Of a DNA stretch of 64,000 bases, positions 4,049 to 23,998 are shown piece after piece. Position numbers and translations under genes: made by a program. Every line of letters starts with the position of its first letter. Position 1 is the first letter of the stretch. The DNA comes from an uncultured Verrucomicrobiae bacterium (GTDB lineage Bacteria > Verrucomicrobiota > Verrucomicrobiia > Palsa-1439): positions 32,001 to 96,000 of the forward strand of contig CAWEWF010000004.1 in assembly GCA_963812605.1 (NCBI GenBank). Reading direction: 5' to 3'. The notes beneath the pieces are model-generated. The model saw only the letters and a list, made by a program, of their open reading frames with translations. It ran no database searches and was not told the origin of the DNA.

Positions 4049-4579
4049 ATGAAAGCTCCCAAGCCAGAGAAACCAAATGGTGCACCCGAAGGCACAATCT
4101 GGTTTGGTGGCCCCATCGCATGGTTTAGCATCGACTTGAGGATCTTCGGTGAACATCTGAATCCCGAGGAGGTCAGCGCCATTTTGGGATGCCAGCCGAC
4201 CAGTTTCGAGCGTAAGGGACAGCCTGTTTTGCGACCCGATGGAACTGTCGCTCGCATTGGAAGGACCGGTGCGTGGCGCCTGCAATTAAGTCCAGCCGAC
4301 ACTGACGAATGGGACTGCGGCGAGGCCATGATGGTGTTGATGTCGCGTTTGCCGGCGAAGGTAGAGATATGGAAGAGCCTGACCAAGCGGTTCAGGGTCG
4401 ATTTCTCCGTCGCGTTATCGATGGAGTCGCGGAATAAGGGCTTCTGCTTGTCCCCAGAGATCATGAGCTATCTTGGCGAGCGAGGTATTAACGTGGGGTT
4501 TGACGTTTATTACGAAGACGAAGCTAAGGCCGAACCATCCGCTGGAGGAAACACTACTCTTCCCCCTTCCTCAGCATGA
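4049..4579 (+). CDS. DUF4279-like protein
   Basis: LRIFGEHLNPEEVSAILGCQPT ... W ... YLGERGINVGFDVY pattern. Confidence 0.7.
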   Translation: MKAPKPEKPNGAPEGTIWFGGPIAWFSIDLRIFGEHLNPEEVSAILGCQPTSFERKGQPVLRPDGTVARIGRTGAWRLQLSPADTDEWDCGEAMMVLMSRLPAKVEIWKSLTKRFRVDFSVALSMESRNKGFCLSPEIMSYLGERGINVGFDVYYEDEAKAEPSAGGNTTLPPSSA

Positions 4580-11318: not shown

Positions 11319-11501
11319 CTACTCTACGACAACGTGATGTCCGTGGAACTCCCCTTCCAGACGTACTTTACGTGAATTGATGAGGTCGGCCACGATGTAC
11401 GCGCCGAGCTGCTCGTCACGCGTCAATTCGTTGACTGTGGAGATCAATTCCGCCAGTGTTGGAGGGCTCTTACGGGTGGACTTCGTTCCATTCTGTTTCA
11501 T
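11319..11501 (-). CDS. Small hypothetical protein
   Basis: 60-aa ORF TLAELISTVNELT...VADLINSRKVRL. Confidence 0.5.
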   Translation of the reverse strand: MKQNGTKSTRKSPPTLAELISTVNELTRDEQLGAYIVADLINSRKVRLEGEFHGHHVVVE

Positions 11502-11628
11502 GCGTGAGTATTTAGCAGGCGACGTGCCATGTCCCGTTCTCGGGGCTCCGAGCACGGAGTTGCGAGGGACGGGCTTGGTAGCTTGACTCAGGGGGGTATT
11601 TTTGGAATGGTTCCGCTGCACAACGGCT

Positions 11629-11704
11629 GGGGATGTAGCTCAATTGGTAGAGCGCCTCGTTCGCAACGAGGAGGTCAGGGGTTCGAATCCCCTCATCTCC
11701 ACCA
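11629..11704 (+). tRNA. tRNA-Ala(CGC)
   Basis: GGGGATG acceptor stem with G3:U70, anticodon loop TT-CGC-AA, GTTCGAATCC T-loop, encoded CCA. Confidence 0.97.
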
Positions 11705-11721
11705 GTCCTTTTATCCATGAC

Positions 11722-12658
11722 ATGGGCGACACTTCACTTCTGCCTTCGTCGGACACCGACGCGCTGTTGCGCACGATTGGCAACACGCCGCTCATCCCGC
11801 TCCTGCGCATCGGCCGGGAATTCCCCGGCGTCCGCATTTTCGCCAAGGCCGAGTGGTTTAATCCCGGCGGCTCGGTGAAAGACCGCGCGGCTTACCGCAT
11901 GATTCGCGCCGCCGAGTTGTCGGGCCGGCTCACGCCGGGCAGAATCATCCTCGACGCCACGAGCGGCAATACCGGTATCGCCTACGCGATGATCGCCGCG
12001 CGGCGCGGGTACCGCTGCAAATTACTGATGCCCGCCAATGCCAGCACCGAACGCAAGAAACTCCTCCAGGCGTATGGCGCTGAGGTTGTTCTCACGGACC
12101 CCAGCGAAGGCAGCGACGGCGCGTTCTTCGCAGGCGCAGCGTCTTTACAAGGAGCAACCGGATCTCTACGTGTATCCCGACCAGTACGGGAACACTGAAA
12201 ACCCGCGCGCTCACTACGAAACCACCGGCCCCGAGATCATCGAGCAGACCGCCGGCAAGATTACGCATTTCCTCGCCGGTCTCGGCACGAGCGGTACCAT
12301 GATGGGCACGGGGAAGCGGCTCCGCGAGTTTAACCGCGACATCAAGCTCGTTGCCGTCCAGCCCGATGGCCCGTTTCACGGACTCGAAGGACTCAAGCAC
12401 ATGGAAACGACGTCGCACATCCCCGATTTATACGACGCCAAAGTTCCCGACCAAATCGTCGGTATCTCCACGGAAGCCGCGCAGCAAATGGCCAAACGCC
12501 TGACCCACGAAGAGGGCCTTTATGTCGGCGTGAGCGCCGGCGCCGCCATTTGCGCCGCGCTGAAGATCGCGGCCACGATTCAGGAAGGCGCGCTCGTCGC
12601 CATTTGTCCCGACGCCGGCAACCGTTACCAAAGCGAGAAATTCTGGGAGACTGCATGA
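11722..12658 (+). CDS. PLP-dependent cysteine synthase (CysM-like); frameshift near 12130
   Basis: IGNTPL, KAEWFNPGGSVKDR, ATSGNTG in one frame; QYGN..N..AHYETTGPEI and GLGTSGT in the next. Confidence 0.9.
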
Positions 12659-12673
12659 ACGCACACAGTCAAG

Positions 12674-12770
12674 CCCCTCACCCTAACCCTCTCCCTCAAG
12701 GGGAGAGGGGACCGGCGAGCAGACAGCAGTTTCCTCTCCCCTCCGGGGGAGAGGATCAAGGTGAGGGGGG
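12674..12770. repeat. Inverted pair of CCCTCACCCTAACCCTCTCCC...GGGAGAGGG palindromic units
   Basis: Two hairpin units in opposite orientation forming a larger inverted repeat. Confidence 0.8.
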
Positions 12771-12788
12771 CGGAGCGGTTCGTTGCAC

Positions 12789-13193
12789 ATGAAACTCTCT
12801 CAACAACTCCTGCATCAAATCCGCCAACACCTCGAAGCGGGGTATCCGAACGAGGCTTGCGGCGTGATGCTGGGGCAAAATGGGATCGTCAGCGAAGTGG
12901 TTTCCGCGGACAATCAGCGCACCGATAGCGCCCGCAATAGGTATCTCATCGATCCGCTGATCTACCTGAAGATCGAGCGGGAGGCCGACAAGCGCGGGTT
13001 GCAAGTGCTCGGCATTTATCATTCGCATCCCGATGTCGCGGCCCGGCCATCGCAGTTTGACCTCGATCACGCGTGGCCCGATTTTTCGTACCTGATCATT
13101 TCGGTCGTCAAAGGCAAAGCGATGGAATCGAATTCCTGGCGGTTGCGGGACGACCGTTCGGCCTTCGACCAGGAGAACATCGAAGTTTTATAA
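12789..13193 (+). CDS. JAMM/MPN+ (M67, Mec-like) metallopeptidase
   Basis: YPNEACG and YHSHPD...PSQFD JAMM motif; lies in a sulfur-carrier cluster. Confidence 0.92.
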   Translation: MKLSQQLLHQIRQHLEAGYPNEACGVMLGQNGIVSEVVSADNQRTDSARNRYLIDPLIYLKIEREADKRGLQVLGIYHSHPDVAARPSQFDLDHAWPDFSYLIISVVKGKAMESNSWRLRDDRSAFDQENIEVL

Positions 13194-13210
13194 AGGCAAC
13201 AGCCGTCTCA

Positions 13211-14269
13211 ATGAGATCTATGGGCAACCACGCGTCCGGTTTTGATTGGGCTGACGGGCTGCACCGATTCAAATTATTCAAACGGCGTTTTGGTCACGGC
13301 CGGGTGCCTGCATACTGGGAAGACGACCCTATTCTGGCCTGGTGGGCAGCCAGGCTGCGCACGCGTTTGGATCGCTTGACACAGGAACAGATCAGGCAAT
13401 TGTATGGCCTAGGTTTTTATTTTGGGTCGGTGCTGACGGCGTGGGTGGGACGTTACTTGGATTTGGCCAAATACCGGACCAGGAACGGTCATTGCAACGT
13501 GACCGAAAGAGTAGACATGTCCCTAGGGCGCTGGGTGCAACATCAACGTGCCCTCAAACATCGCCTGGATGCGCAACGTCTCAAACTGCTAAACCGCCTC
13601 GGATTCGACTGGTCTCCCATCAACACGCTTTGGGGAGAGAGGGTGGCAGAGCTACACACATTTAAGCAAGGACATGGCCATTGCCGCGTGCCACACCATT
13701 ACCCGGAGTATCCCCATCTGGGAATTTGGGTGAGCAACGTGCGCAGGAAGCGCGATAAGCTTTCTCCGCTACGCCGCCGCCAACTGGATCGGATGGGCCT
13801 AAACTGGGCGCCGCTCGCCTCCTCGTGGGAGGCGCGGGTTCAGGAAGCGGTAATGTGGCGAAAGCTTCACGGCAACTGCCAACCACCGTTCGAGTCTCCA
13901 TTAGGGCGCTGGCTGGCCAAGCGACGGGCAGCCTTTGCGGCCGGGAAGCTCAGTCAGCAGCGCAAGCGGCGATTGGAAAAGCTGGGGGTTGAGCTTAGAC
14001 CATTCCAGTCAAGGTGGGAAAGGCGGTTTACAGAACTCAAAGCCTACAGGGCGCGCCATGGTCACTGCAATGTGCCCCGATCCTGCCCAAAGAATCCTGC
14101 TTTGGGTTTTTGGGTAAGCAAGCAACGCTACTTCAAAGATCGTCTCACTCGCAAGCAGATCGTCCGCCTCAACCAACTCGGCTTCCGCTGGCGGATCCGC
14201 CCGCCGAGACCGCCGCGCGGCCGTCACAGTTCGACCTCGGTCACGCGTGGCCCGATTTTTCGTACCTGA
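13211..14269 (+). CDS. Helicase-associated (HA) domain repeat protein
   Basis: About five repeats of W...L..F/Y...GHCxVP...LG.WV..QR...L..LGF.W; no helicase motifs. Confidence 0.8.
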   Translation: MRSMGNHASGFDWADGLHRFKLFKRRFGHGRVPAYWEDDPILAWWAARLRTRLDRLTQEQIRQLYGLGFYFGSVLTAWVGRYLDLAKYRTRNGHCNVTERVDMSLGRWVQHQRALKHRLDAQRLKLLNRLGFDWSPINTLWGERVAELHTFKQGHGHCRVPHHYPEYPHLGIWVSNVRRKRDKLSPLRRRQLDRMGLNWAPLASSWEARVQEAVMWRKLHGNCQPPFESPLGRWLAKRRAAFAAGKLSQQRKRRLEKLGVELRPFQSRWERRFTELKAYRARHGHCNVPRSCPKNPALGFWVSKQRYFKDRLTRKQIVRLNQLGFRWRIRPPRPPRGRHSSTSVTRGPIFRT

Positions 14270-14370
14270 TCATTTCAGTCGTCAAGGGCAAGGCTGTGGA
14301 GTCGAATTCCTGGCGGCTGCGGGACGACCGTTCGGCGTTCGACCAAGAGGCTGTTGAAATTCTCGCGTAG
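14212..14370 (+). pseudogene. Diverged copy 1 of the JAMM peptidase 3' end
   Basis: AARPSQFDLGHAWPDFSYLIISVVKGKAVESNSWRLRDDRSAFDQEAVEILA* versus 13038-13193. Confidence 0.95.
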
Positions 14371-14408
14371 ATTATCACCAGCGCCTACGTAGATCCGTGC
14401 GGCGATTA

Positions 14409-14635
14409 TCAACGCAGATTCCGGGAAAATTCCTCCGGGGACAGTCGGATATCCTTGATAATCTGTCGGAGAAGAAACGGCGAAACGTCTCGACCCGCAT
14501 GAAAGGGAACAGTCGTTCCGCGACCGTCAGCATGACGATACTGCTTGTGCGAACCGCGCTGACGGACCTCGACGAACCCAAGTCTTTCAGGACCTTTTCC
14601 ACCTCACGCGCCTTCAGTACCGGGAGCCGGGCCAT
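14409..14635 (-). CDS. hicA: HicA toxin (frameshift in a G run near 14578)
   Basis: Restoring one G gives MARLPVLKAREVEKVLKDLGFVEVRQRGSHKQYRHADGRGTTVPFH. Confidence 0.85.
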
Positions 14636-14641
14636 GCATGC

Positions 14642-14848
14642 CTAGACGCTGATGGCTTGCGTTCCGATGAACTCAGCTTCGAGCTGCGGCTCGCCGTCCT
14701 CCAGAAGCATCCCAACAACCTCCTTCAGATTGTCACGCAACTCTTCAAGTGTCGCGCCCTGAGAGTGTGCACCGGGAAACCCGGGAATATATCCCACGAA
14801 CAGGTTCGTCTCCGGGTCACGTTCGACAACGGCGGTGAAGTTTCTCAT
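14642..14848 (-). CDS. hicB: HicB antitoxin
   Basis: FVGYIPGFPGAHSQGATLEELRDNLKE motif; leaderless promoter upstream. Confidence 0.9.
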   Translation of the reverse strand: MRNFTAVVERDPETNLFVGYIPGFPGAHSQGATLEELRDNLKEVVGMLLEDGEPQLEAEFIGTQAISV

Positions 14849-14854
14849 GCCCAG

Positions 14855-14883
14855 AAAGTACCGTTCCACAAGGGAAACGTCAA
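14855..14883 (-). promoter_or_regulatory. sigma70-like promoter of hicBA (leaderless)
   Basis: TTGACG-17-TACTTT, 6 nt before ATG. Confidence 0.7.
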
Positions 14884-14899
14884 CCCCACCGCCAAGTTA

Positions 14900-14928
14900 A
14901 AGAGGCTGTTGAAATTCTGGGGCGATAG
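14900..14928 (+). pseudogene. Copy 2 of the JAMM peptidase 3' end (EAVEILGR*)
   Basis: 19-nt exact repeat AAGAGGCTGTTGAAATTCT of 14345-14363, followed by an in-frame TAG. Confidence 0.7.
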
Positions 14929-14960
14929 GCTAGACTGGGTCTTGCGGGTAATAGCGAATT

Positions 14961-15019
14961 GTAGGGCAAGCGGCCCGCTTGCCACTTATTAATAGCGCCA
15001 ACCGGGCCGGTTGGCCTAC
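14961..15019. repeat. Inverted REP pair (REPIN-like)
   Basis: GTAGGGCAAGCGGCCCGCTTGCC ... GCCAACCGGGCCGGTTGGCCTAC. Confidence 0.8.
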
Positions 15020-15049
15020 AAATCGTGTTTGCAAAAAATGGAGAGAACG

Positions 15050-16537
15050 ATGGCTATTAAAGTCACAATTCCAACGGCCTTGCGTCGCTTTGCCAACGGA
15101 CAGACGACGGTCGAGGTGGCCGGCGTAACGATCAACGAGGTGCTCGGCAACCTGACCGCAGAGCATGCCCAGTTGCGGCCCCATCTCTACAGCGAGGACG
15201 GCAAGCTGCGGAATTTCGTGCGCGTGTACGTCAATGACGAGGACATTCGCGCCCGGGGCGACAATGCGCCCGTCAACGAAGGCGACGAGATTTCCATCGT
15301 GCCGTCGATTGCGGGTGGCAACCTTGCCAAACTTGAGCCGATCATCAAAGATCGCGCGAAGCTGACCAATGACGATATCAAGCGGTATTCGCGACACCTG
15401 ATCCTGCCGGAAGTCGGCGTCGAGGGCCAGGAGCGGCTCAAGGCGGCGAAAGTATTGCTCATCGGCTCGGGTGGACTTGGTTCGCCGATCGCGCTATATC
15501 TGACGGCGGCGGGAATTGGGACGATTGGGATGGTCGAGTTCGACACGGTCGATTTCAGCAATCTCCAGCGGCAGATCATTCATTTCACGGGCGACGTGGG
15601 GAAACACAAGCTCCAGAGCGCCGAGGAAAAACTCAAGGCGATCAACCCGAACCTCAATTTCATCCCCCACCCCGTCAAGCTGACGAGCGAGAACGCGCTC
15701 GACATTATCAAGGACTATGACCTCGTCCTCGACGGCACGGACAACTTCCCGACGCGTTATTTGGTCAATGACGCGTGCGTGATGCTCAAAAAGCCGAATG
15801 TGTACGGCTCGATCTTCCGCTGGGAAGGCATGGCCAGCGTGTTCGCGCCGCACCTGGGTGGTCCCTGCTATCGTTGCTGGTATCCCGAACCGCCGCCGCC
15901 GGGGCTCGTTCCGAGTTGCGCGGAGGGCGGCGTGCTCGGCGTCATCTGCGGCATCATTGGCAACATCCAGGCGAACGAAGCCGTCAAGCTCATCATCGGC
16001 AAGGGCAAACCGCTCATGGGCCGGTTGCTGCGGTTTGACGCGATGGACATGAGCTTCCGCGAGTACAAAATTCCGCGCGACCCGAATTGTCCCGTGTGCG
16101 GCAAGAATCCGACCGTAACCGAACTAATTGACTACAACCAATTCTGCGGCATCGGCCGCGGAGAGGACGAAGGTTCCTCAGGAGATTCCATCGTGGAAAA
16201 AGTTGACACGGGCCTCGGCCCCGACGATATCAGCGTCGAGACGCTCAAACAAATGCGCGACCGCAAAGACGATTTTGTCCTCGTCGATGTCCGCAATCCC
16301 GACGAGTTCGAGATTTGCGTCATCGACGGTTCGGTGAAACTTCCCTTACCGGAGTTGCCGCAGCGGTTTCAGGAACTGCCGAAGGACAAGCTCGTGGTCC
16401 TGCACTGCAAGTCCGGTGGCCGTAGCGGCCGCGCGGTGAAATTCCTCAAGACGCAGGGCTACAGTAAGGTCAAGAACGTCGCCGGCGGCATCAATGCCTG
16501 GGCCGAACGCATCGACCCGGACGTGCCGCAGTATTAA
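15050..16537 (+). CDS. moeB: MoaD/ThiS-like sulfur carrier fused to MoeB/MoeZ adenylyltransferase and rhodanese
   Basis: Ubiquitin-like domain ending IVPSIAGG, then RYSRH, GSGGLG, SNLQRQ, CYRC, SCAEGG, and rhodanese HCKSGGRS. Confidence 0.93.
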   Translation: MAIKVTIPTALRRFANGQTTVEVAGVTINEVLGNLTAEHAQLRPHLYSEDGKLRNFVRVYVNDEDIRARGDNAPVNEGDEISIVPSIAGGNLAKLEPIIKDRAKLTNDDIKRYSRHLILPEVGVEGQERLKAAKVLLIGSGGLGSPIALYLTAAGIGTIGMVEFDTVDFSNLQRQIIHFTGDVGKHKLQSAEEKLKAINPNLNFIPHPVKLTSENALDIIKDYDLVLDGTDNFPTRYLVNDACVMLKKPNVYGSIFRWEGMASVFAPHLGGPCYRCWYPEPPPPGLVPSCAEGGVLGVICGIIGNIQANEAVKLIIGKGKPLMGRLLRFDAMDMSFREYKIPRDPNCPVCGKNPTVTELIDYNQFCGIGRGEDEGSSGDSIVEKVDTGLGPDDISVETLKQMRDRKDDFVLVDVRNPDEFEICVIDGSVKLPLPELPQRFQELPKDKLVVLHCKSGGRSGRAVKFLKTQGYSKVKNVAGGINAWAERIDPDVPQY

Positions 16538-20030: not shown

Positions 20031-20099
20031 AAAACCGCCAAGATTTGGAGAAACTGCGCGTGAAGTATTTGAGTCATTGGTCACTGGGTCAACCCAGTA

Positions 20100-20240
20100 G
20101 AGGCCGTTGAAAAACCAATGAATCTTTGCCTCCGGTTGTAGGCCGACTCTGTGAGTCGGCGATTTCTTTAAGGATTTCGCCGCTTCGCAGAAGCGGCCTA
20201 CAGGCCGGGCGGTCGGAATGTGACATTTTTCAACAGCCTC
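20100..20240. mobile_element. MITE (141 bp) with 15-bp TIRs, AGTA target duplication and internal REP pair
   Basis: GAGGCCGTTGAAAAA ... TTTTTCAACAGCCTC (14/15); AGTA at 20096-20099 and 20241-20244. Confidence 0.8.
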
Positions 20241-20446
20241 AGTACACTGGGCAGTTGACGTAACTGGGACCCGCGCCCCTACAGGAAACTGACCGATTGC
20301 CGCAAAGCCGAGTCCGCGAGACCTGCGCAGCAAAACCATATTGTGGCGAGTCGTGCCGCGAATGTTGCGCTCCGATATCGTAAACCGATAATTTTGCTGG
20401 ACAGCGTGTTGGGGGATGGATATAGTCGGGGAACCGGGAACAAATG

Positions 20447-23514: not shown

Positions 23515-23832
23515 TCACAACTCCGTGGCAAAGCGGAGCGCCAGCTTGATCTTGGCAAGCAAGTCCGGGCTCAGCGTGCCGATCTTACGTTCCAGTCGCA
23601 CGGTAGGCACCGAGCCGATGCCCTGCACGTTGGCCACCGTTTTTTCTTTCAGGAAAGTCTGATCACCGAGAACGACTTCGTAAGAGCTGTCGCGATTTTG
23701 CGTCGTGAGAGGGACATAAATGACCAGAGCACGCGGAGCCTGGGGATCGTAACGGGAAAGAATGACAACAGGGCGGGTCTTCGCAGCCAAGCCGAGATCG
23801 GCCATCCAGACTTCACCGGGTTTCGCGTTCAT
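23515..23832 (-). CDS. PemK/MazF family toxin
   Basis: GEVWMADLG..AKTRPVVILS...VPLTT. Confidence 0.85.
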   Translation of the reverse strand: MNAKPGEVWMADLGLAAKTRPVVILSRYDPQAPRALVIYVPLTTQNRDSSYEVVLGDQTFLKEKTVANVQGIGSVPTVRLERKIGTLSPDLLAKIKLALRFATEL

Positions 23833-23998
23833 CGAGAATATTGAGCACGTCTTGCTCGGCTTCCCGCGAGCGCGCCACATCCAGCGCATCGCGATCAGCC
23901 AACTCTATGATCTCGGCGACGCGACGCTCCACTTCCTTGGCGGTCTGTGGCTGCCATTGCTTCAGCTTGTCGTCGAGCTTTTGGGCGATTGCCGTCAT
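23813..23998 (-). CDS. Putative antitoxin
   Basis: 61-aa ORF overlapping the toxin start. Confidence 0.6.
   Translation of the reverse strand: MTAIAQKLDDKLKQWQPQTAKEVERRVAEIIELADRDALDVARSREAEQDVLNILDERETR

Follow-up and report, generated by a model that had tools for sequence, protein, structure and literature searches.

Foreign DNA has probably entered the JAMM-moeB boundary of a Verrucomicrobiia operon twice, each time leaving a spare peptidase 3' end

How can an operon take in foreign genes between its own and stay unbroken? The question is raised by a locus from an uncultured Verrucomicrobiae bacterium (GTDB lineage Bacteria; Verrucomicrobiota; Verrucomicrobiia; Palsa-1439), found in a stretch of 64,000 nt that we call the window (GenBank assembly GCA_963812605.1, contig CAWEWF010000004.1, positions 32,001 to 96,000 of the forward strand; positions below count from its first letter). 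Pfam domains place a pyridoxal phosphate (PLP)-dependent cysteine synthase B (cysM), a JAMM peptidase, a ThiS-like carrier with a GG motif and a MoeB-rhodanese activator in one cluster, and the named homologs and closest loci are all from Verrucomicrobiia. By its gene content, the region is a sulfur-carrier cysteine operon, cysM-mec(JAMM)-thiS/moeB. Between JAMM and the thiS-moeB-rhodanese fusion gene (moeB below) lie a helicase-associated (HA) domain gene and an inverted hicBA pair. We think it probable that this boundary took up foreign DNA twice and that each event left a spare JAMM 3' end. As a natural record of how foreign genes can be taken in while an operon stays whole, the locus is a clean one; its scars give a likely order of events and point to one piece from another species.

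To see what the boundary looks like elsewhere, we compared 11 related Verrucomicrobiia loci (L001-L011), nine of which have moeB downstream of JAMM. The peptidase-moeB interval, which the first-pass annotation of the window had proposed to compare, measures 7-99 nt from JAMM stop to moeB start in seven of these nine. The relatives' JAMM genes end in ..GAGGC[A/T]GTTGAAATT.. and continue into intergenic ..GATAGACT.., as happens in the window after the outermost of three JAMM-tail copies (tail 3). This copy can be aligned with the tail and the intergenic sequence of the relatives and runs on into native intergenic sequence, ..GATAGGCTAGACTGGG, as in the relatives. Because the relatives' interval is only 7-99 nt and tail 3 continues natively, about 1.7 kb is evidently inserted between JAMM and moeB in the window. 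The ancestral state that the alignments show is a JAMM gene ending in ..EAVEIL(GR) and a stop, then a leader (mostly about 50 nt in relatives) and then moeB. The empty site and the continuity of tail 3 thus support, on sequence grounds, the insertion interpretation that the first-pass annotation had put forward. One locus, L009, was set aside as uninformative here since its JAMM context differs: JAMM is followed (L009 6446-12369) by two Pup-ligase family genes, two proteasome subunit genes and one AAA ATPase gene, and there is no moeB.

The sequence statements of the first-pass annotation all hold, with one correction: the three tails stand in series, tail 1-HA-tail 2-hicBA-tail 3, and are not nested as had been described. 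A direct repeat of 155 nt with 86% identity relates 13021-13175 to 14195-14349; in the JAMM frame the homology begins at AARPS (13038 and 14212) and extends to the stop. The 159-nt diverged tail noticed earlier behind the HA gene is tail 2 (14212-14370). Tails 2 and 3 share the exact 19-mer AAGAGGCTGTTGAAATTCT (14345-14363 and 14900-14918), which brackets the inverted hicBA pair as first reported, is present in only two copies in the window with up to 3 mismatches allowed, and was matched in 0 of 100 shuffles. Its second copy does read EAVEILGR, followed by TAG at 14926-14928. A search for JAMM homologs gave 1094 with E <= 0.001, and among the best 120 of these the C-terminus EAVEI occurs in 41, EAVEIL in 6 and xVEI in 77, while the ENIE ending of tail 1 occurs in only 2. 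Orthologs ending in EAVEIL, for which the first-pass annotation had suggested looking, do exist, and within the window the 19-mer is not a multicopy sequence, so that the refuting condition named there does not hold as far as the window shows. Because JAMM orthologs carry EAVEI or EAVEIL C-termini, we read the 19-mer as native coding sequence rather than as a mobile-element end.

The same first reading had cautioned that part of the 19-mer resembles the end of a miniature inverted-repeat transposable element (MITE) at 20100. The 13-mer GAGGCTGTTGAAA does recur, with 1 mismatch at 20100 and exactly at 20228-20240 on the minus strand, and these two places are the inverted ends of a MITE-like element; the resemblance is nonetheless weak. 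The element itself (20094-20252, ~160 nt) has inverted ends CCCAGT..GAGGC[C/T]GTTGAAAAA and two internal hairpins. If the 19-mer were an end of this or another insertion sequence or MITE family, and the hicBA segment had been moved by that element's transposase, the exact 13-mer in one inverted end and the one-mismatch copy in the other would be explained. We consider this very unlikely. The 19-mers are direct, not inverted, and the same sequence is the native JAMM coding end in L001, L002 and L004. The core motif GAGGCNGTTGAA is found in related loci only at JAMM tails, and its three scattered matches in other loci (929 kb of loci plus the window) mean that a chance match in 64 kb is not rare. 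The leader insert at 14925-15049 aligns poorly with the MITE at 20094, with only a TGTAGG..CCTACA pattern in common, and Pfam found no transposase in the window.

How tails 1 and 2 differ suggests where they came from. Over 153 nt, tail 1 (13038-13190) and tail 2 (14212-14364) show 23 differences, 15 of them at third codon positions; 16 are synonymous and 7 non-synonymous (synonymous divergence dS 0.67, non-synonymous divergence dN 0.06, ratio omega 0.09 by the Nei-Gojobori method), a synonymous excess with a binomial p of 4e-6 against neutrality. At the nucleotide level they are 88.9% identical over 135 nt, close to the 89.6% between the species representatives L001 and L002. Because the differences are mostly synonymous, unlike those of a copy decaying in place, this pattern indicates that the two tails diverged within working genes and come from two lineages. 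Upstream of AARPS, all listed homolog variants have HSHPDV, which is replaced by unrelated ..PAET before tail 2. We therefore place one illegitimate junction at 14206-14212, where the first-pass annotation had proposed an illegitimate downstream junction. As it had also noted, the HA open reading frame (ORF) has no stop before the junction and reads into the tail in another frame to a stop at 14269; its last 19 codons come from tail 2. Tail 1 and HA are contiguous, with the HA gene starting 17 nt past the JAMM stop, and by this layout must have travelled together, with tail 2-hicBA-tail 3-moeB as the other unit. Taken together, the alignments show a JAMM 3' end, apparently of another lineage, that carries HA and is joined to the resident tail by one homologous side and one illegitimate junction, with a 159-nt duplication. 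The gene body of homolog P0007 is identical at 76 of 83 residues and is the closest apart from the near-identical P0001 (P0002, 75 of 83; P0005, 73 of 83). In its tail, P0007 matches tail 2 at 50 of 51 residues and tail 1 at 47 of 51, and it ends in EAVEILG, a match that favours tails 2 and 3 as resident and tail 1 plus HA as the incoming piece.

The HA product itself is distant from its relatives. Placing its truncation point by full-length homologs, as had been suggested, did not succeed: the best homologs are 38-40% identical, repeat number varies, and truncation is not demonstrable. The closest homologs (487-494 aa) have two more repeats, others stop at nearly the same point, no more than a few residues away, and all five repeats in the window are complete. 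An identical 352-aa HA product, including its junction-spanning end, is found on 2 contigs, and HicB and MoeB products, too, occur in identical form on 2 contigs; because of this, an assembly artefact is unlikely for the insertion structure. The record probably represents a metagenome-assembled genome, and two genes in the window are frameshifted, which would suit a chimeric assembly of two strains or, alternatively, a tandem duplication in situ followed by decay. Both are extremely improbable in our view, as an omega of 0.09 with dS 0.67 is unlike a decaying local copy, 14206-14212 offers no common sequence for an assembler join, and the junction-spanning HA product is on 2 contigs.

The second unit, hicBA, lies by the alignments inside the last JAMM codons, where a 19-nt duplication is shown to flank the pair. 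A HicA toxin domain and a HicB antitoxin domain are encoded by adjacent genes; however, the toxin ORF is not intact. By three-frame translation, hicA changes frame after its first 19 codons, with 56 codons in the second frame; the ORF as called has 0 Pfam families, and the second frame carries HicA_toxin (PF07927). For hicB, the matches are PF21748 (1.2e-06) and PF15919 (7.8e-05), or 9.5e-07 and 5.8e-05 for the ATG-started form, and only the N-terminal part of the HicB profile is matched. The full-length frameshifted hicA product is absent from the protein collection searched. The pair looks like a decaying toxin-antitoxin module with hicB intact. The earlier view that neither the peptidase gene nor moeB was damaged stands, both being intact ORFs; hicA, and cysM upstream, are frameshifted. 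A PemK/MazF-like toxin gene (23518-23889, minus strand) makes a second toxin-antitoxin locus in the window.

The window is not the only genome with an occupied site. In L005 and L007, about 1.7 kb lies between JAMM and moeB, with one minus-strand gene apiece. The L005 cargo encodes 520 aa with no Pfam family above threshold, and its repetitive sequence suggests a beta-helix protein; the L007 cargo encodes 530 aa with two LamG domains. The two cargo proteins have no significant kinship (BLASTP E 0.16), and because of this we treat the L005 and L007 events as independent. In L005, a 25-nt JAMM-tail stretch stands on both sides of the cargo with 88% identity. In L007, the decayed remnant next to moeB aligns with the native tail plus intergenic sequence of L008 at a score reached by 1 of 500 shuffles. 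An ungapped 24-mer search for tail remnants in the 11 loci (13-17 of 24, against 13-18 at random) was insensitive and was replaced by these alignments. The duplications measure 19 nt in the window, 25 nt in L005 and ~22 nt in L007, and all span ..CAAGAG..GTTGAAAT.. with boundaries that differ by a few nucleotides. A further JAMM homolog, P0002 (92% identical, on a 703-nt contig), extends 19 residues beyond the usual ..EAIEFSA end, to its last listed residue, and this extension may mark another event at the JAMM tail site.

Three unrelated cargos, each sharply bounded and with direct repeats on either side, lie within the same ~25 nt of three genomes. This could suggest that a site-specific recombinase acting in trans uses the JAMM tail as its attachment site, the cargos being small integrative cassettes and the 19-25-nt repeats their attL and attR cores. 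Integration into a gene 3' end with the ORF restored is a classical signature of integrase-borne islands and speaks for this explanation. However, Pfam found no integrase, recombinase, transposase or other mobility gene among the 72 ORFs of the window or inside the cargos, whose products are limited to HA, HicAB, a beta-helix-like protein or a LamG protein. The cargo ends have no common motif: a search among the four cargos for a shared end motif or an attC-like element, such as ends an integron cassette, gave only chance-level 9-14-nt matches, although no dedicated attC model was run. The boundaries vary by several nucleotides between events, with repeat lengths of 19, ~22, 25 and 159 nt, and the repeat around HA is a diverged xenologous copy rather than a core site. 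We judge an attachment site to be quite unlikely. What we see is a hotspot for insertions that lies between two core genes and shows no recognisable mobile element.

To explain why insertions at this place duplicate the JAMM tail, we propose that the JAMM tail has a second function. A promoter scan found a sigma-70-like site, TTGAAA-16-TA[G/C]ACT, ahead of moeB in the window; it is the sole site in 800 nt of L002 and the sole site in 2.1 kb of L005. The same motif with the same 16-nt spacing stands ahead of moeB in eight of nine relatives as well as in the window. Its -35 hexamer TTGAAA is formed by the V-E-I codons of the JAMM tail. Column identity over nine sequences is 0.98 at the -35, 0.94 at the -10, 0.74 in the spacer and 0.57 downstream. 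The prediction is thus of a sigma-70-type promoter, with -35 and -10 hexamers within 16-18 nt spacing at a position conserved across species. In all three occupied genomes, the site is on the moeB-adjacent copy. In tail 1 (..AACATCGAAGTT..) and in the L007 left copy (..GTGGAGATT..), the hexamer is lost and the reading frame is kept; in the L007 right copy, the frame is lost and TTGAAT, the spacing and TACACT are kept. The predicted -10 in L007 (TACACT, within 4098-4135) ends 7 nt ahead of the moeB ATG, and the moeB transcript there would be leaderless if this -10 is used.

Based on these observations, we suggest that the final ~8 codons of JAMM also serve as the -35 region for the promoter of thiS-moeB. 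An insertion between JAMM and moeB would then survive only if it duplicated the overlap, with the C-terminus preserved in the left copy and the promoter in the right one. Survival of overlap-duplicating insertions only would explain why three lineages with unrelated cargo all have a 19-25-nt tail duplication at one and the same place. After duplication the copies could specialise, the left one being free to lose its -35 (tail 1; L007 left) and the right one its frame (tail 3; L007 right). On the same logic hicBA most likely entered first, while tail 2 was the working end, because both 19-mer copies would have been needed at entry, and the HA unit would have come second. Its donor would be DNA of a related species in which HA already sat just behind JAMM, and it could have entered by single-crossover (Campbell-type) integration or by homology-facilitated illegitimate recombination.

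A related possibility is a shuttle that needs no recombinase. RecA would loop out a tail-flanked single-gene cargo as a circle with one tail copy, and the circle would re-enter the JAMM tail of relatives by a short-homology single crossover, with the conserved coding/promoter block as a generic landing pad. We regard this as unlikely. Such a shuttle would fit repeat lengths of 19-25 nt, which equal the block conserved between species, and the arrival of the HA unit with a JAMM tail of another lineage, so that it previously sat behind a JAMM gene. It would not account for a first capture of each cargo without an illegitimate event, and no cargo has been seen twice, those of the window, L005 and L007 all being different. 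Repeats of 19-25 nt are also at or below the length for efficient RecA action. Two components of this scheme have precedents, namely single-crossover duplications (PMC3240628) and hotspots without mobile elements but with frequent recombination in the flanks (PMC5635113). If the shuttle did operate, the operon boundary would be a self-renewing cassette slot across a Verrucomicrobiia clade.

Several points weigh against our preferred account of two insertions kept by a coding/promoter overlap. The promoter is a consensus match alone, and the consensus may not be that of this clade. L010 lacks the motif, and its JAMM stop is only 7 nt from the moeB start. Conservation of the native -35 could come from conservation of V-E-I alone; synonymous conservation at V-E-I is modest (0.61-0.75, against a gene average of roughly 0.5), and the non-coding right-hand copies that support the -35 are three sequences. 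The L007 remnant is not significantly similar to its own left copy (27 of 500 shuffles reach the score). As for which tail is foreign, the body identities of 76, 75 and 73 of 83 are too close to decide, and body-versus-tail identities, tried as a test for a foreign tail, were given up as the differences are too small; a mirror scenario with the tail 2-hicBA-moeB side as the incoming piece is just as good a fit. Which event came first is something that we only infer, and selection accounts for the keeping of the duplications rather than for their origin. The rule suggested by the overlap is that where the last codons of a gene are the promoter of the next, only overlap-duplicating insertions survive and their copies divide the two jobs. 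If the promoter is confirmed, this rule could serve to predict insertion-tolerant points in compact operons, and short 3'-end repeats elsewhere could be read as signs of hidden promoters.

Table 1. Features of the cysM-moeB region, with positions in the window.
Feature	Position	Strand	Evidence or remark
cysM, PLP-dependent cysteine synthase B	11722..12658	+	two ORFs, split by 1 extra base near 12132
JAMM/Mec-type peptidase, intact ORF, C-terminus DQENIEVL then stop	12789..13193	+	Prok-JAB E 1.3e-25
Tail 1, 3' end in present use, AARPS..ENIEVL then stop	13038..13193	+	contiguous with HA gene
HA (helicase-associated domain) gene, 5 repeats	13211..14269	+	PF03457 E 5e-72, 5 stretches
Illegitimate junction, HA unit / displaced JAMM 3' end	14206..14212	.	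homology from 14212
Tail 2, displaced JAMM 3' end AARPS..DQEAVEILA then stop, 159 nt	14212..14370	+	86% identity over 155 nt
Left exact 19-mer, codons ..QEAVEIL of tail 2	14345..14363	+	repeat search
hicA toxin gene, frameshifted near 14578-14582	14409..14635	-	HicA_toxin 3.5e-15 on 14412-14579
hicB antitoxin gene, short UPF0150/HicB-like form; ATG at 14848	14642..14869	-	PF21748, PF15919
Tail 3, EAVEILGR then stop, 29 nt; 19-mer = 14900-14918	14900..14928	+	syntenic remnant of original JAMM end
Sigma-70-like site TTGAAA-16 nt-TAGACT for thiS-moeB	14909..14936	+	predicted; -35 = V-E-I codons
moeB leader, 121 nt	14929-15049		
REP-like (repetitive extragenic palindrome-like) double hairpin TGTAGG..CCTACA in moeB leader	14950..15025	.	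relatives without
thiS (cysO-like)-moeB/moeZ-rhodanese fusion gene, intact	15050..16537	+	ThiS 1e-12, ThiF 5.1e-79, Rhodanese 1.3e-20

The remaining features of the region (Table 1) concern the operon at large. The PALP domain of cysM is spread over the two ORFs (profile positions 3-115 and 117-294), and alignment places a 1-nt insertion there relative to L001-L004. The truncated 158-aa product is on 1 contig only, and its cluster mates measure 279-314 aa, mostly 311-314 aa. The frameshift may be strain-specific or an assembly error; a real one would leave the operon without an active first enzyme. A tRNA gene (11629-11701) lies directly upstream of cysM and is the sole match above the gathering score in an Rfam scan of 11400-15300 (76 bits). 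The spacer between cysM and JAMM, which nearly abut in L003 and L004, is filled by a 95-nt inverted repeat (12674-12768) with 22-nt arms that are 86% complementary. As a candidate known RNA, the inverted repeat (12673-12774) gave only sub-threshold matches to miRNA precursors in Rfam and we take it as a plain hairpin. Downstream, the thiS-moeB-rhodanese product is 86-93% identical to the versions of relatives. The ThiS/CysO-like carrier (15050-15340) is the N-terminal part of the MoeB fusion, with GG at residues 89-90 and a linker after it. Presumably, by analogy with Mec and QbsD, release of the carrier C-terminus may need the neighbouring JAMM peptidase. In the moeB leader, the REP-like double hairpin sits between the predicted -10 and the ribosome-binding region, and it contains a minus-strand promoter-like site (14985-14958) pointing towards hicB.

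Integrase-borne islands and prophages sit in the 3' ends of tRNA or protein genes. Like such islands, the HA event replaces the 3' end of its target with an incoming copy and displaces the old end downstream as a direct repeat; unlike them, it comes with no integrase found by Pfam in the window or cargos, the cargos measure 0.5-1.7 kb, and the repeat boundaries are not identical between events. The hicBA pair resembles HicAB type II modules in having hicA (PF07927) beside a small hicB (UPF0150/HicB-like) in a compact arrangement between housekeeping genes, but here hicA is frameshifted and HicB is a short form. The host operon also has a known counterpart: in mycobacteria, a sulfur-carrier pathway to cysteine is encoded by cysM-cysO-mec.

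As in the mycobacterial set with MoeZR (PMC3227635), a cysteine synthase B, a JAMM peptidase, a ThiS-like carrier and a MoeB-rhodanese protein are found together; in the window, the carrier is instead fused to the MoeB N-terminus and cysM is frameshifted in the assembly. For the insertion itself, a partial parallel is the single crossover of circular DNA in E. coli, which is reported to have given 109-950-bp duplications of the homologous locus (PMC3240628). Like those events, the HA unit has one homologous side, one illegitimate junction and the homologous segment on both sides of the insert (159 nt here), but it appears to be a natural event between sequences diverged at the species level (about 11% nucleotide divergence). 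The recurrence of insertions resembles a class described at genome scale, hotspots of gene transfer that lie between core genes and have no recognisable mobile element (Oliveira et al., 2017; PMC5635113). As in those hotspots, a single core-gene interval holds a different cargo in each genome, no mobility genes were found by Pfam in the window or cargos, and there are signs of recombination in a flanking gene (the xenologous tail). In contrast to that class, the insertion point can here be narrowed to ~25 nt within a coding tail, a short duplication accompanies every event, and a functional reason, the overlap of coding sequence and predicted promoter, can be proposed.

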